Part shown: piece by piece, positions 4,202 through 50,750 of the stretch
Layout: each line of letters opens with the position of its first letter
Numbering within the stretch: the first letter of the stretch is position 1
Virus record (IMG/VR): IMGVR_UViG_3300042897_000742
Coordinates: 29,872-93,871 of that record
Direction: 5' to 3' (one strand)
DNA: 64,000 nt
Origin: a virus
Program-made: the position numbers and the translations under genes
Notes under the pieces: model-generated
Told to the model about the DNA's origin: nothing
The model's database searches: none
The model's input: the letters and a program-made list of their open reading frames with translations, nothing else

Positions 4202-5063
4202 AACATTTGCTGATGTGTATCAAACTGCATTAACTGATGTACTCCAAAACCCTGAATATGTTACCTCGCCAAGAGGTATGAAAATTAATGAAGTTACTAA
4301 TGCTGCATTGGTTATTGAAGATCCTACCTTTCCTCTTTATGAAAATAATAGAAGGAGTAGTCAATTCAAATATATTGCAGCTGAATTAGTTTGGTACTTT
4401 ACTGGCCGTAGAGATACTAATTTCATTTCAAAATTTGCAAAATTCTGGGAACAGATTGATAATGGAAATGGTACGGTAAATTCTGCATACGGTAATCTTA
4501 TTTTTACAGATAAGAATTCTCATGGTCTTAATCAATATCAATGGGCATTACAGTCTTTAATTGAAGATAAAGATTCTCGTCAAGCTATTGTACATTTTAA
4601 TACACCTTCTCATCAATGGAAAGGTAATAAAGATTTTGTATGTACTCTTACTGGTGTATTTCAGATTCGTGATAATCATCTTAACTTTACAATTGATATG
4701 AGATCAAATGATCTTATATTAGGTACACCAACTGATATTGCATTTTTCTGTCTTCTTCAACAACAGATGTATGAACATCTTAAAAAGTATTACCCAGATC
4801 TTGAATTAGGTACATATACTCATATTGTTCATTCTCTTCATATCTATGAAAGACACTTTACCTTAATAGATGAAATGTTAGATCATCCATTTGAACCAAT
4901 GAGTTTTCCAGAGATAAGAGAATTCTTAATTGATCCTAACGGCAATTCTTTAGAAGGAATTAAAGAAATTGAATCTGAAATAGAATCAGATTCTGAAGTT
5001 TTACGAGTTAAAGATGATCCTTTACATCAATGGATAACCGATGCGGTTTTCATGGATATATAA
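4182..5063 (+). CDS. Thymidylate-synthase-family enzyme, dCMP hydroxymethylase-like (T4 gp42 type)
   Basis: DFVCT catalytic Cys; MRSNDLILGTPTD has Asp at the dUMP/dCMP specificity position; SLHIYERHF. Confidence 0.8.
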   Translation: MRIYKGETFADVYQTALTDVLQNPEYVTSPRGMKINEVTNAALVIEDPTFPLYENNRRSSQFKYIAAELVWYFTGRRDTNFISKFAKFWEQIDNGNGTVNSAYGNLIFTDKNSHGLNQYQWALQSLIEDKDSRQAIVHFNTPSHQWKGNKDFVCTLTGVFQIRDNHLNFTIDMRSNDLILGTPTDIAFFCLLQQQMYEHLKKYYPDLELGTYTHIVHSLHIYERHFTLIDEMLDHPFEPMSFPEIREFLIDPNGNSLEGIKEIESEIESDSEVLRVKDDPLHQWITDAVFMDI

Positions 5064-5080
5064 TAAAATCATCTATAATA

Positions 5081-6031
5081 ATGAAGTACTTAAAACTGTT
5101 TGAAGAATTCTTAAATGAAGCCGCTGAAGAAACTGGGTTAAAGAAAGTTTATCTAGCCACTCGTCGTGATAGCGGACAAAGATGGTGGTCTTATAAAGGG
5201 TTCGCCGGTGATAAATTCTTTATCCAGGTTACTGAGAATAACATTGATAAGTTAGATATTAATCCTGAGTACCCGGTACTTAATTATCATAGTACCATTG
5301 TAGATGAGTTACTAAAGAAGAAAAAGATTAAAGAAGAAAACATCTATAATCATCCTAAGTATATTCCATTATCAGGTTCTAAGAAAGAATTTCATAAACT
5401 CGTAGGGGAGGATGAAAATGTACCTAAGACAGTTTATTCAAAGAATGAAGCATTAGAGAAGTTAAATTTTCCTATTATTGCAAAACCTGCAAATGGTCAC
5501 AGTGGAATTGGAATCCAGGTAATTAAGAAGCCTGAGTTAATGGAAGAGATTGATGAGAAGATCTTCGATACTTTTTCTGAATATGTAGATAAAGTAGAAG
5601 AAATGAGATTCTTTAACTTTAAAGGTCAACCTATCTTTTGGATGGAAAGAACACCTGCAAACAGTAAAGCAAAGTCTGGTGATGGCAAGACCGATGAAGA
5701 AATGGAATTCAAGTATGCTAAGAGAAATGTTAATAACATACCAGAAGACTATAAAAAGGTTTTAGAAAAGTATTGCAAAACATTTGAAAAATTTCCCTAT
5801 ATTTGTTTTGATATGATGAAAGACAAAGAAGGAAAGATTTATGTAATTGAATCGAATGCTCAACCCGGCGTACCGTTCGATAGTACGGTTGAAATCTATA
5901 AGAAAGTATATGAAGATTTCTATGGTAAACCATTAGACGATAAATCTCTTCAAAAACTAGATAAATACGCAAAAGAAATGGTTGAAAGAACGCTAAAACG
6001 CGATAGTGGAAGATTTTCTGTAAAAAAGTAG
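5081..6031 (+). CDS. ATP-grasp (RimK-like) protein with capsid-targeting-like leader
   Basis: FPIIAKPANGHSGIGI, EMRF, CFDMM and IESNAQPG; N-terminus MKYLKLFEEFLNE. Confidence 0.8.
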   Translation: MKYLKLFEEFLNEAAEETGLKKVYLATRRDSGQRWWSYKGFAGDKFFIQVTENNIDKLDINPEYPVLNYHSTIVDELLKKKKIKEENIYNHPKYIPLSGSKKEFHKLVGEDENVPKTVYSKNEALEKLNFPIIAKPANGHSGIGIQVIKKPELMEEIDEKIFDTFSEYVDKVEEMRFFNFKGQPIFWMERTPANSKAKSGDGKTDEEMEFKYAKRNVNNIPEDYKKVLEKYCKTFEKFPYICFDMMKDKEGKIYVIESNAQPGVPFDSTVEIYKKVYEDFYGKPLDDKSLQKLDKYAKEMVERTLKRDSGRFSVKK

Positions 6032-6081
6032 AAAAAAGTCCACTAAAAATTTTCAAATCTCGTTTTTTTGTTTTATATTTG
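6031..6081 (+). promoter_or_regulatory. Host-type (Bacteroidetes) promoter TTTCA-N18-TATATTTG; partial copy of the early cassette
   Basis: TAnnTTTG at 6074-6081; upstream GAAAAAAGTC..AAAATTTTCAAATC shared with the cassette repeats. Confidence 0.65.
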
Positions 6082-6119
6082 TACTGACGGTATTTTTATA
6101 CTGTCTTAAAACAAATAAT

Positions 6120-6662
6120 ATGTCTGAAGAACTAAAAGAAATATCTGATTTTTACATTACATCGGATACGTGGTTTGGTAGACCACAGATCCTTGATATT
6201 GCAAGGAGGACCCAGTTTTCAAACATTGATGATATGAATGATCAATTCATCAAAAACTGGAATAAACATGTTAAATCAACTGACCTAGTTTTTCACTTAG
6301 GTAATTTTGCATGGGACCCTCATACCGCAAGAACCGTATTAAAAAAGCTTAAAGGTAAAATCTTTTTCATGATTGGAAATTCTGATGAAGCCTTAATTGA
6401 AGTAGCTGACGAATTTGCAAACGTCGAGGTTCTTGACCAACAAATAATTGAACTTCCGCAATTTGATTCTGTTCTCTGTCATTATCCTCTCGAGGTTTGG
6501 AATGGTAAATCATCAGGGACAATTCATTTTCACGGTCATACTGTTTTTTCTCACAAGACTGATCTTAGATCATCCAATCGTGTAAATGCTTGCATTGACT
6601 TTTGGAATTATTCACCAATTAAATTTTCGGCAATTAAAGAATTCGTACATGGCAAAAAGTAA
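6120..6662 (+). CDS. Calcineurin-like metallophosphoesterase with degenerate catalytic motifs
   Basis: SDTWFG, HLGNF, GNSD, CHYP and HGH; motif order intact but three key residues substituted. Confidence 0.75.
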   Translation: MSEELKEISDFYITSDTWFGRPQILDIARRTQFSNIDDMNDQFIKNWNKHVKSTDLVFHLGNFAWDPHTARTVLKKLKGKIFFMIGNSDEALIEVADEFANVEVLDQQIIELPQFDSVLCHYPLEVWNGKSSGTIHFHGHTVFSHKTDLRSSNRVNACIDFWNYSPIKFSAIKEFVHGKK

Positions 6663-14037: not shown

Positions 14038-14919
14038 ATGATATTAAAGAAAGGATCCAAGGGAAATGATGTTAAAGAATTACAAAGATTCCTTGGTATT
14101 AAAGATGACGGGAATTTTGGACCAGGAACTGAAGCCGCTGTTAAAAAATGGCAAGCCGCAAATGGTCTTACCGCTGATGGTATTGTGGGTCCTGCCACTT
14201 GGAACGCTATGGGTGTTGCTACTACTGATGCTTCGGAAAAAGTTTATACAACAACAAATGGATTAATAGTCAATCGCTATTATATGCCTACTGATGAGTA
14301 TTTACAAGGACCTATTAAACCAGAATGGGTATTCCTCCACCACACAGCAGGATGGCATAATCCTTATAATACTATTGATAACTGGGCAAAGGATACTCGT
14401 GGAAGAATTGCAACGGAGTTCGTTCTAGGTGGTCCTTCGGTTAGAGGTAATGACGATAAGTACGATGGTGTAATGGTCCAGGCATTTCCTGAAGGAAATT
14501 ATGGATGGCACTTAGGTCAATGTGGATCTCAAAAAATGCATAAGAATTCAGTAGGAATTGAGGTATGTAATTTTGGATATGTAGTAAATGGTAAAACATA
14601 TGCAGGTACTCAAGTTACACAATCCCAAACTGTTGAATTAGCAAAGCCTTTCCGTGGGCATAAAATATGGCATCGCTATTCAGATGCTCAAATTGAATCA
14701 TTAAGACTCTGGATTCTTTGGATTGCTGAAAGAGATAATATTGATGTAAGAGCAGGATTACCAGCCTTAATTAAAAAGAATGGTGCTGCTGCATTTGAGT
14801 GGAATGAAGATGCTTATTATGGTAAGGTTAAAGGACTATGGACTCATACTAATACAAGAAAAGATAAGGTTGATATGTTCCCTCAACAAGAATTGATGGA
14901 TATGTTAACAAACCTCTAA
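14038..14919 (+). CDS. Endolysin: peptidoglycan-binding domain plus N-acetylmuramoyl-L-alanine amidase
   Basis: LKKGSKG.DVK.LQ..L....DG.FGP.T / DGIVGPATW; HHTAG, SVGIE and TH...RKDK.D. Confidence 0.9.
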   Translation: MILKKGSKGNDVKELQRFLGIKDDGNFGPGTEAAVKKWQAANGLTADGIVGPATWNAMGVATTDASEKVYTTTNGLIVNRYYMPTDEYLQGPIKPEWVFLHHTAGWHNPYNTIDNWAKDTRGRIATEFVLGGPSVRGNDDKYDGVMVQAFPEGNYGWHLGQCGSQKMHKNSVGIEVCNFGYVVNGKTYAGTQVTQSQTVELAKPFRGHKIWHRYSDAQIESLRLWILWIAERDNIDVRAGLPALIKKNGAAAFEWNEDAYYGKVKGLWTHTNTRKDKVDMFPQQELMDMLTNL

Positions 14920-14935
14920 AAATAGAAAATATGAA

Positions 14936-15079
14936 ATGGCAAAAGCTAAAGCTGGTGTAACTGATTCTTTCAGAAAGAAACCTAAGGTATCACGACCTGG
15001 GATTCAGGCTAAGACAAAACAGTCTAAGAATAAGAAATCAAAGAATTACGTTAAACCATATAGAGGTCAAGGTCGCTGA
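14936..15079 (+). CDS. Small basic protein (47 aa, ends YRGQGR; not in ORF track)
   Basis: MAKAKAGVTDSFRKKPKVSRPGIQAKTKQSKNKKSKNYVKPYRGQGR. Confidence 0.7.
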   Translation: MAKAKAGVTDSFRKKPKVSRPGIQAKTKQSKNKKSKNYVKPYRGQGR

Positions 15080-15229
15080 CTTAATGTCATAGACATTTTT
15101 GTATTTTCATGAAATCCATGACATTTTTTGTAGTGTTTTCTTAAAAATATAGTTTTGCACGGTTTTTATAGTATAATAAACAAATAGGGGAAACTCTATT
15201 ATAATAAAAAACTAAAAAAATATTAAGCT

Positions 15230-15592
15230 ATGTTTTATTACAATTCAAATCACTTTGATAACCTACTAAAAGATGCATTTAAAGATTGGCCTACATGGTC
15301 AACAACATTAACATCAACTGGTAATCACTATTCAGAAAAAACTGATGATGGGTATAAGTTGGAAATTGCAGTTCCTGGCTTAACTAAAGAAGACCTAAAG
15401 GTTAAGATTATTAAAGGTGATCTTAACATTACCTGTGAAAAAGAAAATCACTGGGTTTCTCGTTTTGACAAAACATTTAATCTACCTAAGGATGCAAACA
15501 TTAAAAAGGTAAAGGCAACAGTTGAAAGTGGTATCTTATTAATTACAATTCCTGTAAATGAAGATCCTGAAAACATTGTTGAGATTATTTGA
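15230..15592 (+). CDS. Small heat-shock protein (Hsp20)
   Basis: LEIAVPGLTKEDLKV, F.LP and A.VESGILLITIP. Confidence 0.9.
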   Translation: MFYYNSNHFDNLLKDAFKDWPTWSTTLTSTGNHYSEKTDDGYKLEIAVPGLTKEDLKVKIIKGDLNITCEKENHWVSRFDKTFNLPKDANIKKVKATVESGILLITIPVNEDPENIVEII

Positions 15593-21125: not shown

Positions 21126-22007
21126 ATGAAATTTATTAAAACGTTTGTTAACTTCTTGACAGAGAAGAAGGAGGAAAAGGATTTTGAGGATAAAATAAAA
21201 GGTCATGGCTATTTTAAGGGAATATCTACTTCAACCGCCCGTAAGAAAATGGATCAGATGAAAGATCAGGCCGCTAAACCTGACGATGATCCTTCTGCTT
21301 ATAAAGAATTACCAGGCGACACTAAAGGAAAGAAACTTCTAAAACCTTCTAAACATACTAAGAATTATCAGGATCTTTATGCTGATGATGAAAAGGAAAC
21401 AAAAAATGAATCCATCATTAATTGGGAACTTTATCAACAACTAAAAGGTGGATCTACGAAAATTGAAAAAGAGCTTAAATATCAGATAGCTGAAAAGTAC
21501 ATAACTATAACAGCAACCGGACTTAATAAAGATGATAAAGCTGCTCTTATCAAAATGGGTGCAAATGTTACTATGATGGGCCCAGGATGGTATATAAATC
21601 TTAAAGATACTGATAAGAAAAAGATATTGGATTATCTTAATAAAGAAGGTATCGAAGTAAATGAAAACATTAATGAAGAATCTGGTGGAGATCGTTCACC
21701 GATTGATAATGATGCAATTGAAACTGGGTTAAAGAAAAAGAGTGAAGAAACTGGAGTTCCTCTTCCACTCCTTAGAATCGTAATGCGTCGTGGTATGGCT
21801 GCATGGAAGAGTGGTCATCGTCCAGGTGCAGGACAAGAACAGTGGGGTTATGCAAGAGTTAATTCATTTTTAACCCAAGCACCAGGTACTTGGGGTCGTC
21901 CTATTAAAGATCCTAAGAAAGGTGCAAAGGATGCCTATGGTGCTGATGCCGATGTTGCACAAGAAGTAATTAAAGGTGGACATGATAAAAATTTAAAGAA
22001 AGGATAA
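21126..22007 (+). CDS. CTS-leader multidomain protein; C-terminal DUF5824-like domain
   Basis: MKFIKTFVNFLTE; KNES and NENINEE linkers; RRGMAAWKSGHRPG...QWGYARVNSF. Confidence 0.7.
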   Translation: MKFIKTFVNFLTEKKEEKDFEDKIKGHGYFKGISTSTARKKMDQMKDQAAKPDDDPSAYKELPGDTKGKKLLKPSKHTKNYQDLYADDEKETKNESIINWELYQQLKGGSTKIEKELKYQIAEKYITITATGLNKDDKAALIKMGANVTMMGPGWYINLKDTDKKKILDYLNKEGIEVNENINEESGGDRSPIDNDAIETGLKKKSEETGVPLPLLRIVMRRGMAAWKSGHRPGAGQEQWGYARVNSFLTQAPGTWGRPIKDPKKGAKDAYGADADVAQEVIKGGHDKNLKKG

Positions 22008-24393: not shown

Positions 24394-25839
24394 ATGAAAC
24401 ACTTTAAATCATATAGTGAGTTTAAACTCCAGGAAAAGTACGAAGGCGTAGAGGTTAGTACTAGACGCTACGAAAGAGTACATGGTAAAAAACCACGTGG
24501 AAATGGAATGTGGGCATTTTACCTTGATCCAGTTGGTGATGAACCTATTTTTACTCCATCTGCTATGAATTATGCCGATGCCGTTAAATGGGCATCTCTT
24601 AAAGCCAGAAACATGGGTAAGAAAGTTATCTATGTTGGTGAATCACTTAATGAAGCATTAAAGATTGGTGATTTTGTTCGTTATAAAAAGGATAATGACT
24701 TTACTGGTGGAAAGATTACAGATCTTAAAAGTGGAAATGCAATTGTAAAAAATTGGGATGGATCCGAATCAGAATTTAAGCTAGGTGATTTAGAATATGT
24801 TAAATCATGGAATGAAGCCGAAAAGAGAGGTGATAATAAAATTTACTTCAATAAAATGAGCGATATTGACCATACTAGACTTGTTAAATGGATGGGAAAA
24901 AATTTAGATAGCGATTATAACGATTATAAATTTACAAAAGGTGGGAAAACAAGCACAGACACTCACACCCTAGACACTACTAAATTATCGGAAACCGAAC
25001 TTAAAGATTTAATCCACTACCTGGAAAGTCAAAGATATAAATTCTATACCGAAATTTGGTTACCTGCTTACGAAAGTGTTAATGAACGCGAATACACCGA
25101 TGAACAAAGAATGGATATGGCTGATAAAGGCCTAGCCTTACCTGATGGCAGCTTTCCAATTAAAGACTTAGAGGATCTTAAAAATGCTATTCAGGCATAC
25201 GGCCGCTCAAAGGATCAATCCGCTACTGCTAAATTTATTGTTAAGAGAGCAAAAGCTTTAAGTGCTGAGGATCTTATTCCTGATACCGAGGATTTTCAAA
25301 AAGCTTTAAAGGAAACTATTACTGAAGGTAATGCATTTCTTGCTGCTCGTGCAAAAGCCATCGAAGAAGATGCTGAAGAGTTTGAATTTAACGGTAAGAA
25401 ATATCCTGTTCTAAACAGACCTAAGAAACTTAATGAAGAGCTTTCTGATAATGATGCCTATAAGATTATAGATATAGGTTCAAAGTTTTCTAAGGAAGTA
25501 GGCGGTCATTTACTTGCAACTCAAACATTTGATACAGCAAACGATTTTGTTGATTATCTTCTCTCTGAATTTATTCCAAAGAAGGATCATCCAAAATTCT
25601 TAAAATCTGTTAAATCTCTAATGGAATCAGATTCATCAGAGGAAGATACCGACGAAGAATACATTGATCCAGCTACTTTACCACAATCGGTAAAGGACTA
25701 TGTTTCTTCTAATTATTCAGATGCTAAAATAACTAAAGCTGAAAGTGATGAAGATGGTTTTGAAGTATACTTAAGCAATGGATTAGAGCTCGTATTTGGA
25801 CCTGACGAAAAATTCATTAAAGCCGTAAAAGAATCTTAA
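24394..25839 (+). CDS. CTS-leader polyprotein-like multidomain protein with C-terminal PepSY-like domain
   Basis: MKHFKSYSEFKLQE; about 7 modules separated by hydrophobic-x-E linkers. Confidence 0.75.
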   Translation: MKHFKSYSEFKLQEKYEGVEVSTRRYERVHGKKPRGNGMWAFYLDPVGDEPIFTPSAMNYADAVKWASLKARNMGKKVIYVGESLNEALKIGDFVRYKKDNDFTGGKITDLKSGNAIVKNWDGSESEFKLGDLEYVKSWNEAEKRGDNKIYFNKMSDIDHTRLVKWMGKNLDSDYNDYKFTKGGKTSTDTHTLDTTKLSETELKDLIHYLESQRYKFYTEIWLPAYESVNEREYTDEQRMDMADKGLALPDGSFPIKDLEDLKNAIQAYGRSKDQSATAKFIVKRAKALSAEDLIPDTEDFQKALKETITEGNAFLAARAKAIEEDAEEFEFNGKKYPVLNRPKKLNEELSDNDAYKIIDIGSKFSKEVGGHLLATQTFDTANDFVDYLLSEFIPKKDHPKFLKSVKSLMESDSSEEDTDEEYIDPATLPQSVKDYVSSNYSDAKITKAESDEDGFEVYLSNGLELVFGPDEKFIKAVKES

Positions 25840-44710: not shown

Positions 44711-45184
44711 ATGGGATTAGACATGTATCTTACCAAAAAACATTACGTTAGAAACTGGGATCATACCCCAGAAGAAAAACAACATACGGTGACCGTCACA
44801 CAAGGTGGAGAAACACCTTCATACATTGATACAACTAAAATTAAATACCTTGAGGAAGAGGCTGGTTATTGGCGTAAAGCAAATCATATTCATAATTGGT
44901 TTGTCAATAATGTACAAGAAGGTAAGGATGAATGCCAAAAGGCATGGGTTTCATCTAGACAGTTAGAAGAGTTATCCACGGCCTGTAAAGAAGTCTTGGC
45001 AGATAATTCTAAAGCAGGAGAACTTTTACCTACCGCTGATGGATTCTTTTTTGGTGGGACTGAATATGATGAGTATTACTTTAGAGATATTGAAAGAACA
45101 ATAGAATTTATTGAACCTATTTTGGCAGATATGGATCAAGGTGGTAATTTACCTTATGATGTTTATTACCAATCTTCTTGGTAA
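44711..45184 (+). CDS. Conserved phage hypothetical protein
   Basis: MGLDMYL...YWRKANHIHNWF...GFFFG...YYQSSW. Confidence 0.8.
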   Translation: MGLDMYLTKKHYVRNWDHTPEEKQHTVTVTQGGETPSYIDTTKIKYLEEEAGYWRKANHIHNWFVNNVQEGKDECQKAWVSSRQLEELSTACKEVLADNSKAGELLPTADGFFFGGTEYDEYYFRDIERTIEFIEPILADMDQGGNLPYDVYYQSSW

Positions 45185-45233
45185 TCTTTCAGATCCTAAC
45201 ATAACCTGTTATATTTTTATAAATTAAAACAAA

Positions 45234-45521
45234 ATGAAATTCTCTGATATCATATTTACACCACACCCACACGGAGGAGTAAAGTCTCGTACATTCTTTC
45301 CTAACGGATATGAATTATCTGTTGTGGCAGGTCAATTCGCATATTCAACTCCTAGAACCGATTTTGAATCTGCTGATGATTATGAAGCATTTGAAATTGC
45401 TGTTTTCGACCAGGATGGTGAATTTGTTACTAATCAATTTGGATTCGGTGATGATGTCCAAGGTTGGTTAAGCAGAAAAGAGATTGAAGAATTAATGAAA
45501 ACCATATCCGAACATGCCTAA
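45234..45521 (+). CDS. Hypothetical protein
   Basis: FPNGYELSVV...EIAV...DDV.GWL; preceded by a host-type promoter at 45187-45217. Confidence 0.7.
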   Translation: MKFSDIIFTPHPHGGVKSRTFFPNGYELSVVAGQFAYSTPRTDFESADDYEAFEIAVFDQDGEFVTNQFGFGDDVQGWLSRKEIEELMKTISEHA

Positions 45522-45819
45522 GAAATATAGATACCGCATTGAACACATTTATCCACCGGCATTTGCAGTGGTAGGTGGTCAGCGGTATCTGTTTCCTGGC
45601 TGGATTCCTGTCGAAGATGATGTTACATTCGAAGATGTGGAACATATTAATCCTTATGCAAATCTAAAAAAGGAAACCTTCACGGTGACAGGATCCACTG
45701 GAAATACATACACGGTGACACGGCGAGAAAACGAACTCACTTGTGACTGCCCAGCCGGAAAATTCCGCGGTCAATGTAAACATATAACCCAAATTAAAAC
45801 CGAACTGTCATTGTCCTAA
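45514..45819 (+). CDS. SWIM zinc-finger protein
   Basis: GSTGNTYTV...CDCP.......CKH. Confidence 0.75.
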   Translation: MPKKYRYRIEHIYPPAFAVVGGQRYLFPGWIPVEDDVTFEDVEHINPYANLKKETFTVTGSTGNTYTVTRRENELTCDCPAGKFRGQCKHITQIKTELSLS

Positions 45820-45841
45820 TATATAAAATAAATTAGTACAA

Positions 45842-46189
45842 ATGAATACAGTTCTTATTATTTTATTGATTGCAGCTGTTATTGCAACAATATATACTAC
45901 GTTTAGTGGTAAAAAGAGTTCAACATTAGTAGGATATTCCGAACCACATAAACCAAGCGGTATCTCTGGGTTTAAACCGAGCGGTACATCTGGTATCTCT
46001 GGAACTAAACCGAGCGGTACATCTGGTATCTCTGGAACTAAACCAAAGCCAAAACCGAGCGGTACATCTGGTATCTCTGGAACTAAACCAAAGCCAAAAC
46101 CGAGCGGTACATCTGGTATTAAAGGTGTTAAAAAACCTGGAAGACCAAAGAAGACGAGTGGCAATAGCGGAATTAAAGGAATTAAATAA
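45842..46189 (+). CDS. Membrane-anchored protein with PSGTSGISGTK repeats
   Basis: N-terminal TM; near-exact DNA tandem repeats at about 45950-46120. Confidence 0.7.
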   Translation: MNTVLIILLIAAVIATIYTTFSGKKSSTLVGYSEPHKPSGISGFKPSGTSGISGTKPSGTSGISGTKPKPKPSGTSGISGTKPKPKPSGTSGIKGVKKPGRPKKTSGNSGIKGIK

Positions 46190-46575
46190 TGAAAAGCTAT
46201 AAAGACTTCATATCAGAATCATTTGTACAAAATGTAGTACAAAACGATAAGGATCCAAACTTTGATGGTGCAGATCCTTCCTCTATTGAAATTCATAATA
46301 GGGGTATCGGTGGTGTAAATTCTCTACAAGGTCATCGTGATCAAATTGTAAGACTTTTGGAACAAATGCTTGCTGATGCTAAAATGGCTCAAAAGAACCA
46401 TAAATTAGCTCATTACTCTATTGCAAAGATTTTATCTTTGGCTGATCCTGATCGTATAACAGGTGTGTTACTCACTTACCTAAAGAACCATCAGACTGCA
46501 ATTGAAGAATTAGAAGCAATTCGTAGAAAAGGTGGAAGTGGAGCCGGAAAATCAATTCCTAAAGGATTGATCTAA
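46189..46575 (+). CDS. CTS-leader protein
   Basis: MKSYKDFISE, closest match to the T4 leader MKTYQEFIAE. Confidence 0.7.
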   Translation: MKSYKDFISESFVQNVVQNDKDPNFDGADPSSIEIHNRGIGGVNSLQGHRDQIVRLLEQMLADAKMAQKNHKLAHYSIAKILSLADPDRITGVLLTYLKNHQTAIEELEAIRRKGGSGAGKSIPKGLI

Positions 46576-46590
46576 AAATAAAATTACATA

Positions 46591-47361
46591 ATGGCATTAA
46601 GATTTAACAGCATTCAAGAATACGGTGAGTATATCTATAATGAATGTATTAAGCAAAACAAACAAAAAGACGTTTGTAATAGCGGAAAAGGTGGTACAAA
46701 AACAAAAGTAACTGATTCCGATCCTGATGGTTTTAGTTTAACTTATTCTTCAAGTAACCTAGATGCTAAATCACAGGAATACTTAAACACTCACACGGTG
46801 ATAAGTAAGGCACCACCGCAAAATGCACCAGCCCATATAGAAATTGTTGAAGGAGAAATCTGGAAGCAAACTATTCATAAGTATGATAAAAATGTTTATG
46901 CAAGCAAAACCGTAGTTGATAATTCAACTGACTTTTCTGTTTCTGCTGATGCATCTTATAAAGAAGCTAATGTTAGTGCAAATTATGAACAAGTTTATTC
47001 TGAAGAAGATACTAATGTAAGTGAAGAAGTTTCAAAAGAAGCATCACAATATGATTTAGAATTTCATGGTATTCAAGGAAAGCATTATGCTGTCGATTTT
47101 TATACTAATAAGTACACATGTTCTGACCGACCTGTATTAGAGATTACCTATACATTTGAGTCAATAACATTTAGGGCAGTATGTGATTATTCTGATGGCG
47201 CTGCTCTTCATTGGAATAACGAACACTATCATAAAACATATAACATTGCATCTCTAGGACTTGACCCGGTTGTTACTATTCCGCAAGTTGTAGCATTTGA
47301 TGTTAATTATGATAACCCATGGCCTAGCTATACAATAACAAACATAGAAGATAACGCATGA
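46591..47361 (+). CDS. Beta-rich hypothetical protein (possible aerolysin/ETX-like fold)
   Basis: Ser/Thr-rich alternating segment DFSVSADASYKEANVSANYEQVYS. Confidence 0.5.
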   Translation: MALRFNSIQEYGEYIYNECIKQNKQKDVCNSGKGGTKTKVTDSDPDGFSLTYSSSNLDAKSQEYLNTHTVISKAPPQNAPAHIEIVEGEIWKQTIHKYDKNVYASKTVVDNSTDFSVSADASYKEANVSANYEQVYSEEDTNVSEEVSKEASQYDLEFHGIQGKHYAVDFYTNKYTCSDRPVLEITYTFESITFRAVCDYSDGAALHWNNEHYHKTYNIASLGLDPVVTIPQVVAFDVNYDNPWPSYTITNIEDNA

Positions 47362-47945
47362 AACATATCAGAGAATACGAAGAATTTCTAAATGAAAATA
47401 CAAACGCAAGGCGATTCCAAAATAAAGGAAAGCTGCGTTATAGCGATCAATTTAGCGGTAATGTTAGTCTTTCAAAAACAATTGGTACTGAACTAGGATT
47501 TGATCCAAAGAAAGGATCATCGGGTGTTGGATTCGATAATGTATCTATGTATGATAATGAATCGAGTAAAACTATCGTAGGTGATGCACTTACTGGTAAA
47601 TACACATACGATGATCTCGTTAAACTTGCAAAAGAATGGTATGGCAAGAATGAATCTATGGTTAGTGAAGCTGCAAGTGTACCTTCAAACATTATGGATT
47701 TTGCAAAGAGAAAAGGTTCTTATGCAGTTAGTCTTGTAAAGAAGGCTGCAACATGGGCAGAAAAAGCCGGTAAAAGAATATCTGGTGGTACTGCAATCGG
47801 AAAGAATTATGACACTATCATTCTTGATATGAAACACCAAGGATCTGAGATCTACATTAACCTTAATAATGAAACGATTGAACTATACGGTGAAGAGGTA
47901 ACTGATGCTAAATCATTTGCCAAAGTACTTCAAGATAACGAATAA
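47358..47945 (+). CDS. CTS-leader two-domain protein
   Basis: MKHIREYEEFLNE; KNESMVSE linker. Confidence 0.75.
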   Translation: MKHIREYEEFLNENTNARRFQNKGKLRYSDQFSGNVSLSKTIGTELGFDPKKGSSGVGFDNVSMYDNESSKTIVGDALTGKYTYDDLVKLAKEWYGKNESMVSEAASVPSNIMDFAKRKGSYAVSLVKKAATWAEKAGKRISGGTAIGKNYDTIILDMKHQGSEIYINLNNETIELYGEEVTDAKSFAKVLQDNE

Positions 47946-47955
47946 ATAATTTACT

Positions 47956-48258
47956 ATGAAACATATAAAACTTCTTGAAGAATTCGTTAATGAAAATATG
48001 ATTAATGAATCTGAGACATTTGATGGATTAAGATCTAAATTTGAGAAAAATCCTTACGGTATAGGAGCTCAATTGTCGTATTACGAAGAAGGGAAATACG
48101 GATATCCCGATAGCTTAGTATTTAAGCATGACGAAAAATATAGAAGAGACATGATAATACCTAAATTGAAGTCAATGGGGGTTCCTTCTAAGAATATTAT
48201 AAAATCCGTAGAAAAAGGTTATAAATATCCTTTTGTAGTTACAGTAACAAAATTTTAA
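47956..48258 (+). CDS. CTS-leader protein
   Basis: MKHIKLLEEFVNENMINE. Confidence 0.75.
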   Translation: MKHIKLLEEFVNENMINESETFDGLRSKFEKNPYGIGAQLSYYEEGKYGYPDSLVFKHDEKYRRDMIIPKLKSMGVPSKNIIKSVEKGYKYPFVVTVTKF

Positions 48259-48264
48259 TTAATT

Positions 48265-49392
48265 ATGAGGCATATAAAACTGTTTGAAGAATTTATAAGT
48301 GAAGCCGCTCGTATTGGTAATAGCTCTTGGAGTAATATTCTCAGAGACCTAAAATATGATGGCTGGGACATAAAGGGTAATTCTGCTTATAAATCATATG
48401 AAGGTGATAGCGGTGACGAAAGAAAACTTGAACTTTCTAATTATGGTGATGAAGAAGTTGAATGGACCATTTATGATGGAAGAGGTAAGGAGATTAACTC
48501 AGGTTCATTTGATGCAGAAGGCTTAAGTGCCGGTGAATTGGATAGCGAAGTTTGGGGCAACATCGAAGAATCTGTTAGTGAAGCAAAAGATATCTCAATT
48601 AAAGACTATAAAGTTGGAGATGTTATTTCTTTTAAGGATGGTGAAGACTGGAAAGTAACAAAGGTTAAGTATGATAAACTCATGGTTAAGCCTCATAATG
48701 AAAAAGCCAAAAAAGCAAATACAAGCATAGAGATTGATATTGACTTAGACTACCTTAAAAATAATCTAAAGGAATCTTTTATTAATGAAGGTCGTACAAT
48801 TGAAAAGATTGAAAAAGACAGAACTAAAGTAGTTAATGATATGGCTGAAATTGTTACTAATTGGAAAGCCGCTAAAGAATCTGGTGATAAAAAAGCCGAG
48901 GCATCATTTTTACAAAGACTTAAGGATCTCACTGCCCAAAAGAAAGGCCTAGAGAAAGAGCTTAACATGGCAATCGCAGGTAAAGATCGTGATGTTGAAT
49001 TAGTTATCTCAGAAAGTGTTATGTCAGAAATTGACTTATTAGCAAGAGAAGCCAAAAACTTTAAAGATTTTCTTAAAGCATTTAAGACTGATAATCGTTA
49101 TAAAGGTTTAGATACTGCAGGTGATACTAAGGAATTTGAAGATTGGTTAAAATCTATATATGATAACGCTAAGAACGAAAGTATGAATGAAGCTGAAGAT
49201 GTTAAGAAAGGTATTCATGATCATTGGAAAGAATTATATAATGAAGACTTTATTTCCACATATCCTAAAGTAGCAAAGATTCTTAAGAATCGTCAAAACG
49301 TTGATCGTCGCGAATTGGCAAGAATCTGGGATGAAACCTATGGCGAAGACTTTAAAGAAAAGTACGCTAAGATCTGGGATGTTTTAGATTAA
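48265..49392 (+). CDS. CTS-leader polyprotein-like protein (5 modules)
   Basis: MRHIKLFEEFISE; linkers EESVSE, KESFINE, ISESVMSE and NESMNE. Confidence 0.75.
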   Translation: MRHIKLFEEFISEAARIGNSSWSNILRDLKYDGWDIKGNSAYKSYEGDSGDERKLELSNYGDEEVEWTIYDGRGKEINSGSFDAEGLSAGELDSEVWGNIEESVSEAKDISIKDYKVGDVISFKDGEDWKVTKVKYDKLMVKPHNEKAKKANTSIEIDIDLDYLKNNLKESFINEGRTIEKIEKDRTKVVNDMAEIVTNWKAAKESGDKKAEASFLQRLKDLTAQKKGLEKELNMAIAGKDRDVELVISESVMSEIDLLAREAKNFKDFLKAFKTDNRYKGLDTAGDTKEFEDWLKSIYDNAKNESMNEAEDVKKGIHDHWKELYNEDFISTYPKVAKILKNRQNVDRRELARIWDETYGEDFKEKYAKIWDVLD

Positions 49393-49431
49393 CATTCATT
49401 AAACTTTTTACATTTTTTTCATATAATAATA

Positions 49432-49462
49432 GAGGGACCATTTCAAAAACCTGGTCCCTTTG
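49432..49462 (+). terminator. Probable terminator or regulatory hairpin
   Basis: AGGGACC...GGTCCCT stem, the same stem as at 21061 and 60491. Confidence 0.5.
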
Positions 49463-49475
49463 TTATTATTGTTAT

Positions 49476-49889
49476 ATGGAAACTTTATTATGGTTAGACG
49501 ATATCAGAGATCCAAAGGATAGCATTTGGTGGAATTGGATTGCGGTATCTGGTGTTAACCCAACCCATTATGATATTGTATGGGTAAAGAATTATAACGA
49601 TTTTACTAAGTGGATCAAATTTAATGGTTTACCAGCGGTAATCTGTTTTGATCATGATCTGGGTGAAGATCTTGCCAAAGACCGTGTATCTAGCGGTATG
49701 AGTAAGAGAAAGGCTCGTTCGCTAAAGAGAGAAACTTTAAGTGGTTTTGATTGCGCCAAATGGTTGGTTGAATATTGCTTGGATGGTAATCATTCAATAC
49801 CAGAGTATAGAATTCAATCTGCTAACCCGGTGGGTGCTGAAAACATAAAGGGATTAATTGAAAACTTTAAAAAGAATGTAAAATGTTAG
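49476..49889 (+). CDS. Cyclic-phosphate-processing receiver-like domain protein
   Basis: LWLDDIRDP, FDHDLG, G.DCAKWL and QSANPVG. Confidence 0.75.
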   Translation: METLLWLDDIRDPKDSIWWNWIAVSGVNPTHYDIVWVKNYNDFTKWIKFNGLPAVICFDHDLGEDLAKDRVSSGMSKRKARSLKRETLSGFDCAKWLVEYCLDGNHSIPEYRIQSANPVGAENIKGLIENFKKNVKC

Positions 49890-50077
49890 GTTTGTTTGAT
49901 ATAATGGATGAAGCAATTGCAACAGAGTTAGGTGTTGATATTAAAACATACATTGATGTTATTGAGAATCGCTGTACTTATGAAGAGGCCAAACTTATTA
50001 TTGATAACATATGGGATGAAGATGGTAATCCTGATTTAGCAAAAGAACTGTTTAACGAAAAACTAAAAGGAGAGTAA
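49883..50077 (+). CDS. Hypothetical protein
   Basis: Coupled ORF. Confidence 0.6.
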   Translation: MLGLFDIMDEAIATELGVDIKTYIDVIENRCTYEEAKLIIDNIWDEDGNPDLAKELFNEKLKGE

Positions 50078-50078
50078 T

Positions 50079-50750
50079 ATGATTGCTAACATTAAGAGAT
50101 ATGCAATGAGAAATGCAAAACTAAAAGAGAGTAAGTTTTACGTAAAGGATAAGAGATCCTTTAAGGAAAGGACTAAAAACTTTGGACAGAGTCTTTTGTT
50201 TTGGAAAGGCCGTAAGAAAGGAATGATTCATACTCGTAATCTTGAATGGTCAGATTTGAGATACATTTTCTTTCCAAAAAAATTGGAAAAATATGGATAC
50301 TTAAACATTACATTCTATAAAGAGGATAGTGAATATTATAAAGCACTTTATCCGCTGGTTCTTGCTATGGATTATGAAGCTAAACCTACTTGGTGCCCAC
50401 GTTGGTTCTTACGATTCTTGCATGTTTTTGGTAATGATAAGTCATTAGTGAGAGTACGTAATAGGAAATTACATGACTTACACAGATACTTAACCAAGGG
50501 CATTATGTTTTGGGATTGGAAAACTAAATGGGCTTCTTATGATTTGCGGATTAGTATTTCAGGACCTACACACCTACAGAATTTAGCCGATGATATTGAA
50601 CGTGGCTTCTATTCTAGGGGTAGGGAAAAAGAACTTGTTGAGCAGATCTTAAAATTGGATCCTAACGCATCAATTATTTGGGGAAGCATTAAACGATTTG
50701 AAGAACAATTAGAAGAATTAAAAAATAAACAAGAAAATAATAATGTATGA
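50079..50750 (+). CDS. Hypothetical protein
   Basis: 223-aa ORF. Confidence 0.7.
   Translation: MIANIKRYAMRNAKLKESKFYVKDKRSFKERTKNFGQSLLFWKGRKKGMIHTRNLEWSDLRYIFFPKKLEKYGYLNITFYKEDSEYYKALYPLVLAMDYEAKPTWCPRWFLRFLHVFGNDKSLVRVRNRKLHDLHRYLTKGIMFWDWKTKWASYDLRISISGPTHLQNLADDIERGFYSRGREKELVEQILKLDPNASIIWGSIKRFEEQLEELKNKQENNNV

Follow-up and report, generated by a model that had tools for sequence, protein, structure and literature searches.

Candidate capsid-cargo polyproteins with T4-like leaders and exchangeable modules on an uncultured viral contig

The window analysed here, a stretch of 64,000 nt, comprises bases 29872–93871 of a 93.9-kb IMG/VR viral contig, whose CheckV completeness of 34% implies a whole genome of approximately 250–300 kb. 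The window is AT-rich (~34% G+C), and almost every gene is encoded on the plus strand. We studied an island of five open reading frames (ORFs), here named by their start positions, four of which begin with a short leader resembling the capsid-targeting sequence (CTS) of phage T4. Two of them, the 47358 and 48265 ORFs, are strings of small modules joined by linkers of one kind, as had been noticed in the original prediction. We consider the leader-bearing ORFs as probable precursors of capsid cargo. The features of the island are listed below; arrows mark joints or predicted cuts, and numbers following the letters are residue positions.

46189–46575, plus strand: 128-aa ORF, leader MKSYKDFISE↓S (46189–46218) and a single 118-aa module with isoelectric point (pI) 9.0
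46591–47361, plus strand: 256-aa ORF in a variable slot, without a canonical leader, with only a leader-like N-terminus ..SIQEYGEYIYNE↓C
47358–47396, plus strand: leader MKHIREYEEFLNE of a 195-aa ORF that ends at 47945
47397–47669, plus strand: module A of this ORF (residues 14–104), with the linker KNESMVSE104 at its end
47670–47942, plus strand: module B (residues 105–195, start AASVPSN...), widespread and highly conserved
47956–48258, plus strand: 100-aa ORF with leader MKHIKLLEEFVNE↓N, a second site MINE17↓S and one 10-kDa module
48265–48303, plus strand: leader MRHIKLFEEFISE of the five-module ORF (375 aa; stop codon 49390–49392)
48304–48582, plus strand: module 1 (residues 14–106; ends EESVSE106), acidic alpha+beta domain, pI 4.2
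48583–48789, plus strand: module 2 (residues 107–175; ends KESFINE175), small beta-barrel
48790–49014, plus strand: module 3 (residues 176–250; GRTIEKIE...VELVISE250), long helical hairpin
49015–49191, plus strand: module 4 (residues 251–309; SVMSEIDLLA...NESMNE309), helical
49192–49389, plus strand: module 5 (residues 310–375), helical, with an internal W.E.Y.EDF...Y.K duplication

Fifteen ORFs of the window begin with a leader of the form M-K-x-(I/F/V/Y)-x-x-(F/Y)...(hydrophobic)-(N/S/T)-E, four of them (46189, 47358, 47956, and 48265) in the island. T4 internal proteins carry the CTS MKTYQEFIAE and receive a single cut beside it (PMC8442874); T4 genetics assigned targeting to residues 4 and 7, and processing to residues 8 and 10, with Asp at position 10 blocking the cutting (PMC9026906). 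MKSYKDFISE, the 46189 leader, shares six of its ten residues with the T4 CTS. The 13-residue leaders also have hydrophobic residues at positions 4 and 7 and a hydrophobic-(N/S)-Glu end; in the 47358, 47956 and 48265 ORFs these are I4, one of Y, L or F at position 7, and the endings LNE, VNE and ISE. Hence, the features of a T4-type tag, that is, approximately ten residues, targeting positions 4 and 7, and a terminal hydrophobic-x-Glu, are all present in the island leaders.

Multi-core precursors of ribosomally synthesized and post-translationally modified peptides (RiPPs) likewise combine a short leader shared by unrelated bodies with recognition sites that recur, and the island leaders might, like signal peptides, direct export or peptide maturation unrelated to the capsid. 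This is hardly credible here: the leader is acidic and amphipathic, with neither a hydrophobic core nor a Gly-Gly site, and matches the T4 CTS residue for residue; the modules are predicted to be folded domains of 59–118 aa, not short core peptides; and no maturase genes are adjacent. As leader chemistry and domain-sized modules do not fit, both the signal-peptide and the RiPP-precursor variants were rejected.

Some leader-bearing ORFs outside the island have recognizable bodies. The one at 5081–6031 of the window (leader MKYLKLFEEFLNE↓A) matches ATP-grasp proteins (YheC/D-like, D-Ala-D-Ala ligase C-terminal domain, RimK-like) and would be an enzyme with a capsid tag, comparable to T4 Alt. The cargo ORFs at 21126–22007 and 24394–25839 match DUF5824 (E 3.5e-14) and a PepSY_like domain (E 1.7e-08); apart from ATP-grasp, these are the only recognizable domains in the ten leader-bearing ORFs outside the island.

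The linkers initially described in the 48265 ORF (EESVSE, KESFINE, ISESVMSE and NESMNE, ending at residues 106, 175, 255 and 309) and in the 47358 ORF (KNESMVSE, ending at residue 104 between the two modules) are indeed there, and the same grammar recurs in the 21126 (KNES and NENINEE), 23035 (LTESTLNE) and 25842 (VEESLNES) ORFs. Outside the first 16 residues, the motif ES[LVIMF]x0–1[NST]E has nine matches in the 3,065 aa of the fifteen leader-ORF bodies, compared to none in the 23,459 aa of the other 127 ORFs. In within-protein, composition-preserving shuffles of the leader proteins, the mean number of matches is 0.1, and 0 out of 2000 shuffles reach nine. Hence, acidic or AT-rich composition does not account for the motif, and the enrichment foreseen in the original prediction is observed.

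The division of the 48265 ORF into five modules stands, with one boundary corrected: modules 3 and 4 meet at VISE250↓S and not at MSE255, as relatives join module 3 to module 5 straight after LVISE, and comparative data place G/S-x-MSE-IDLLA within module 4. The W.E.Y.EDF...Y.K repeat reported in module 5 occurs twice, with 8 of 15 positions identical.

The linkers keep only the P3–P1 residues of the leader, plus Glu and Ser at P7–P5, while the targeting half of the leader is not found in them. Among 59 unique internal junctions, P3 is V, I or L in 54 and P2 is N or T in 44; P1 is Glu in 52, or in 56 if a one-residue register shift is allowed, and never Asp; no preference is seen at P10–P8. 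In DNA, leader tails have a core close to GAAGAATYTRTTARTGAAGC in common with the linkers. The linker is thus the 3′ half of the leader, corresponding to the processing half of the CTS, at both the protein and the DNA level. The joint is probably the processing half of a T4-type CTS, that is, a candidate site of the prohead protease. At the sequence level, each protein has not a single site after the tag, but one to four extra internal sites of the same type. The ES dipeptide fits P1–P1′ of a second, upstream cut site in some cases: LKE↓S and ISE↓S agree with it, and KNE↓S does not.

The contig of the window, being a fragment, lacks head genes, including a gp21-type protease and a scaffold. 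Its start is syntenic with genes just downstream of the capsid gene in a close relative of 140 kb (G002), which has 92% identity to the window over the island. The head genes of G002 stand in a row and encode a Portal_T4 portal, a 576-aa Peptidase_S77–scaffold protein and a 571-aa Gp23-family capsid protein; the portal, the protease–scaffold fusion and the capsid protein are encoded in three relatives (G001, G002, and G004). The first ~160 residues of the 576-aa protein constitute the Peptidase_S77 (gp21) domain and are followed by a scaffold of repetitive coiled coil; T4 encodes its protease and its scaffold in two different genes. The protease domain can be aligned with the crystal structure of T4 gp21, 5JBL (E 1e-5), with His in LGELDHP and Ser in ISSRAAG opposite two gp21 positions that we take to be catalytic. 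The fusion is located at 4720–6450 of locus L008 of G002 and is also present at loci L005 and L007; its scaffold repeats have the form YSE/YAE-xL-AE-x-V/L-D-K.

The junction motif is present at domain boundaries of this protease–scaffold protein as well. When a junction matrix built solely from foreign proteins was scanned over the 140-kb relative, six protease–scaffold sites fell within about the top 32 scores. Among them are VNE166↓S, where protease and scaffold meet, and, following the coiled coil, AINE368↓SEVSE373↓. The capsid protein of the relative starts with ..HLINE↓A and has NLNE↓S upstream of the Gp23 domain.

The nearest deposited relative of the capsid protein (56% identity) comes from the 462-kb uncultured phage LR756500.1, followed by Lak megaphages of Prevotella (36% identity) and jumbo phages of Tenacibaculum, Sphingomonas, Chryseobacterium, and Flavobacterium; the genomes of phages with the nearest capsid proteins are 462–550 kb long, and these proteins suggest jumbo phages of the Bacteroidota type. 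These relatives, together with the portal, protease and Gp23 set, indicate that the window derives from a giant phage with a T4-type head and not from a close relative of T4. In LR756500.1 (loci L016–L018, e.g., record positions 455388–455694 and 269168–271250), at least eight ORF starts encode the same leader (MKYIKEYEDFINE and similar); the leader pattern has eight matches, compared to zero for a reversed control pattern, and clear multi-linker chains were not evident in the four ORFs read there. DNA, protein and tblastn searches of 50,697 deposited phage genomes retrieved nothing for the island, hence no cultured carrier is known.

Four loci related to the island were found (L001–L004), and these close relatives differ in modules exactly at the joints. 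In L001–L003 (92% identity), the orthologue of the 48265 ORF has 282 aa and consists of leader MKHIKHIDSFINE and modules 2–5; module 1 is absent, and the leader is fused at E↓AKDLSIKDY, the window counterpart being EESVSE↓AKDISIKDY. In L004 (74%), it has 217 aa, with leader MKYIKLFEDFMNE joined to module 3 at E↓GRSIEKIE and followed by modules 4 and 5, modules 1 and 2 being absent. Homology with L001 is collinear up to base 47994, the last base of the 47956 leader, the body of this ORF is replaced by an unrelated one in L001, and homology resumes at 48575, 8 nt ahead of the Glu106/Ala107 joint. With L004, homology begins again at 48778 (codon 172, encoding the F of FINE↓G). The stretch between the homology breakpoints is occupied by unrelated leader-bearing genes instead. 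All three breakpoints are 0–12 nt from a leader end or a linker Glu codon, that is, the same ~20 nt that encode the joint also mark recombination breakpoints. Together with the motif enrichment, these differences in module content support the proposal that the linker is a standard joint by which cargo modules are concatenated and swapped.

In the rest of the island, the 46189 ORF is conserved in L001 and L004. The 46591 gene, which has a Cys-rich N-terminus, lies inside the island in the window and L001; in L004, its homologue is found ~6 kb downstream (14609–15379), and the slot holds an unrelated 272-aa leader-bearing ORF.

Moreover, a phmmer scan of 1.84 billion cluster representatives (E ≤ 1e-3) yielded 415 proteins, each representing a cluster, that match at least one of the five modules. 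They are 60–1137 aa long, and the match may be at any position. The five modules were mapped separately on the best 150 of the 415 proteins: 40 carry module 5 alone, 26 module 3, 19 module 2, 14 module 1, 17 modules 3–4 and 8 modules 3–5, other combinations also being present. Among these 150, module 3 has 73 instances, 71 with a mapped start at residues 12 to 922, and nearly all mapped starts are preceded by ..ES.[VIL][NT]E↓, whether at the end of a leader or deep in a 1137-aa chain. Module 4 has 37 instances and module 5 has 62, of which 54 end within 5 aa of the C-terminus. Homology ends within 8 aa of a joint or a terminus in 64% of cases, compared to 25% expected.

Modules 1, 5 and B exist as stand-alone leader+module proteins (104–129 aa for module 1), and modules 2 and 3 are found directly behind a leader, heading shorter chains; fused and separate versions are thus interchangeable. 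Module B is present in 118 out of 120 homologues of the 47358 ORF at 75–93% identity, with starts at residues 5–231; it is always preceded by [VIL][NST]E↓ and also forms 109-aa leader+B proteins. Module A is present in only two of the 120, and a 93%-identical 109-aa relative (P0153) cleanly lacks it.

Relatives of 900–1137 aa (P0018, P0019, P0058, P0101, P0147, and others) bear the modules downstream of other N-termini (MSSFINFNNK.., MSTKKTFESFVN.., MAQLNKISSFKSF..) and consist of ~7–12 segments each, with the joint motif as the boundary. Module B also occurs behind one more N-terminus, ..KQMYKDFFGYRLNE↓. These N-termini may be alternative tag types.

The polyproteins might also act whole, packaged or not, as uncut multidomain proteins, with the linker being a recombination scar, a leader remnant of gene fusion or a preferred inter-domain spacer. 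Linkers are similar to leader tails in DNA and contain the breakpoints, so recombination alone could produce them, and cleavage is at this stage a prediction. Still, a scar should decay, yet P3–P1 are kept across hundreds of clusters with less than 50% identity; the preference for Glu at P1 with no Asp among the 59 junctions, and the absence of the targeting half, also argue for a processing site. Moreover, the motif is found at domain boundaries of the protease–scaffold protein, which did not arise by cargo fusion, and each module is also found either alone with a leader or immediately after one. We therefore consider uncut chains quite unlikely, and predict cleavage at the joints.

The modules have masses of 7–13 kDa, pI of 4.2–9.2 and net charges from –13 to +4. 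For structure prediction, a single global MAFFT alignment of all module carriers put proteins with only module 1 or only module 2 under module 3; hence leader+module 1 and modules 2–5 were folded separately, which left modules 2 and 4 on shallow alignments. The AlphaFold2 model of leader+module 1 has a predicted local distance difference test (pLDDT) value of 84 and a predicted template modelling score (pTM) of 0.74. In it, module 1 is a compact helix, five-strand sheet, helix domain, and the leader is disordered, with pLDDT below 50 at residues 1–11. For modules 2–5, the mean pLDDT is 80.6 and pTM is 0.33; confidence falls below 50 at ORF residues 164–175 and 241–252 and dips at approximately 308–317, in agreement with the three linkers, and the dip at 241–252 marks the joint of modules 3 and 4. 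In these models, the modules have the signature of independent domains, resembling beads on a string.

Neither model had a PDB match with E ≤ 0.001 in Foldseek, and module 2 weakly resembles the KOW/SH3-barrel fold; no Pfam domain above the cut-off and no usable PHROG family were found in the five island ORFs, and no match for module B was found in the ESM Atlas.

The modules might be cleaved and still be structural, serving as core, scaffold or inner-body material of a very large head, like T4 gp22, gp67 and gp68 or the inner body of phiKZ. They would then aid assembly or DNA condensation and be expelled or inert, not acting in the next host. The lineage is one of giant capsids, judging by the 462–550 kb phages with the nearest capsid proteins; in phiKZ-like phages, many proteins of the head and inner body are cleaved after Glu (PMC5694885); modules B and 5 are very conserved; and module 3 is modelled as a long coiled-coil hairpin reminiscent of a scaffold segment, making this explanation possible for conserved module 3. 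On the other hand, module content differs between 92%-identical phages, the genes occupy variable islands well away from those for the head, the same leader stands on the ATP-grasp enzyme elsewhere in the window, and the pattern better suits accessory arms-race cargo than essential scaffolding. On balance, a structural role is unlikely, and accessory cargo remains our preferred assignment.

The likeness of the leader to the T4 CTS, the linkers corresponding to its processing half, the sites in the scaffold and capsid proteins, and the stand-alone modules lead us to read the ORFs as capsid-targeted, protease-cut precursors. Specifically, with a probability of roughly three in four, they are polyproteins loaded into the capsid and cut by the prohead protease into 7–13 kDa internal proteins, the leader tail and the linker serving in addition as an in-frame recombination joint. 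The N-terminal leader would act as a T4-like CTS and dock the whole precursor onto the scaffolding core during prohead assembly. A gp21-type prohead protease would then cut after the leader Glu and after the Glu of each ..E-S-x-hydrophobic-(N/S/T)-E linker, releasing single-domain proteins that would stay inside the head and, probably, accompany the DNA into the host; any role in anti-defence or host takeover is likewise conjectural. One tag would thus load several different passengers at a fixed proportion. Whether freed of its tag in a leader+module gene product or excised from a polyprotein, a module would end up as the same mature protein or with the same mature N-terminus. Recombination of any leader tail with any linker would be in frame, and its product correctly addressed and cuttable, which would explain module gain, loss and exchange exactly at the joints.

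Several observations weigh against this interpretation. Cleavage and packaging are deduced here from sequence, and the protease specificity is derived from the same motif that it should explain. The protease itself is absent from the 34%-complete contig of the window and was seen in relatives with 74–92% identity here. The short T4 rule [LI]xE, or a bare hydrophobic-x-Glu ([LIVMF]xE), is not enriched in these proteins, hence the signal is the longer motif. The range of module pI is unlike that of the highly basic, once-cut T4 internal proteins, the 46591 ORF is inside the island without a proper leader, and no module has a function recognizable with Pfam, PHROGs, the ESM Atlas or Foldseek. No clear late promoter was found: sigma-70 promoter-like sites are not commoner than in shuffled sequences, the scan being uninformative, and an ATAAATA-like element stands upstream of some leader genes only. 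Terminator-like hairpins were not found in 45000–50200, in a scan that was likewise uninformative.

The closest known system is that of the T4 proteins IPI, IPII, IPIII and Alt, which have a CTS and are processed by gp21 (Mullaney and Black, 1996; reviewed in PMC9026906, PMC3012670, PMC8442874). Common features are the 10–13-residue tag with hydrophobic positions 4 and 7 and a hydrophobic-x-Glu cut site, the gp20/gp21/gp23-type head, and unrelated, fast-evolving small bodies behind one tag, with mature sizes of 7–13 kDa that match IPI* and IPII*. Unlike in T4, up to four further internal sites are predicted per protein, and about ten in relatives longer than 1000 aa; the site is extended to E-S-x-hydrophobic-N/S/T-E, the modules lack a basic character, and the protease of the relatives is fused to the scaffold. 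Pfam and PHROG searches revealed no sequence similarity of module bodies to any T4 internal protein body.

In phiKZ, 201phi2-1 and SPN3US, head, inner-body and ejection proteins are cut by a gp21-like protease at (S/A/G)-x-Glu sites (PMC5694885, PMC10052503). These are also giant phages with many head proteins cut after Glu, some at multiple sites, and with cargo ejected into the host. However, propeptides of more than 100 aa are removed there and discarded from one mature protein, whereas here strings of independent, interchangeable modules follow a 13-aa tag; P3 is small there, compared to V, I or L here (54 of 59 junctions), and the leader here has 10–13 aa. No homology to phiKZ/SPN3US-type families was found, either as a PHROG or Pfam match or by tblastn in the 50,697 phage records.

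Polyvalent proteins carry many effector domains per polypeptide, which accompanies the DNA of the invading element (Iyer et al., 2017, PMC5512222). They also combine many unrelated domains in a chain, and it has been proposed that these domains are released as from a polyprotein. In contrast to the island proteins, they have embedded peptidases, known enzymatic domains and no common short joint; cutting of the island proteins would fall to the head protease, acting in trans on one uniform motif. Neither an embedded peptidase nor enzymatic or anti-defence domains of the polyvalent type were seen, as no Pfam domain was found in the island ORFs.

At the DNA level, the pattern resembles PeSL cassettes, repeats composed of a promoter and a stem-loop by which modules are shuffled in T4-type genomes (Arbiol et al., 2010, PMC2839356). 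In both systems, short conserved sequences flank variable ORFs and contain the breakpoints of insertion, deletion and replacement; here, the repeats at the replacement breakpoints (47994, 48575, and 48778) are leader tails or linkers. However, PeSLs are intergenic, regulatory and move whole genes, whereas the repeat described here is coding, with no intergenic early promoter and stem-loop, and in-frame exchange fuses or splits proteins. A full-text search retrieved no published description of CTS-led cleavable polyproteins, most subscription journals being outside its coverage.

We give about even odds to a broader proposal, that the ~20-nt joint is doubly used, as a protease recognition site and as a homology patch, and thus forms a protein-level cassette system, integron-like or PeSL-like within coding sequence, throughout a lineage of uncultured giant phages with T4-type heads. 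The 415 clusters for five modules alone and the leaders in the public 462-kb phage genome are in line with such a spread. If so, any small domain placed between two joints would obtain a capsid address, release as a free protein and delivery to the next host, and stringing modules on one tag would multiply the diversity of cargo per scaffold-binding site.

For the T4 capsid-targeting tag, a textbook curiosity that also serves in vaccine engineering, the known arrangement is a single tag with one cut and one small protein. If the joints are cut, giant environmental phages would use the same principle as a plug-in polyprotein platform: the small proteins loaded by a single tag could be varied, and they would precede all other phage molecules in reaching a new host. 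Among such first-delivered proteins, anti-defence and takeover factors are expected. The leader combined with E-S-x-hydrophobic-N/S/T-E would provide a sequence rule for mining thousands of candidate injected proteins from metagenomes, and a naturally occurring scheme for loading several cargoes into T4-type capsids. It would also be a concrete case of one short sequence serving as both a recombination joint and a predicted protease site.

Upstream of the island, at 45842–46189 of the window, a small membrane-anchored protein with a (K)PSGTSGISGTKP repeat is encoded. The repeat copy number varies, the protein having 115 aa in the window, 100 aa in L001 and 92 aa in L004; a long antisense ORF at 45808–46164 is probably an artefact of this repeat. 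The right flank is formed by a conserved gene at 49476–49889 that matches the Pfam family cREC_REC (cyclic-phosphate processing receiver domain, E 1e-19) and phrog_1479.

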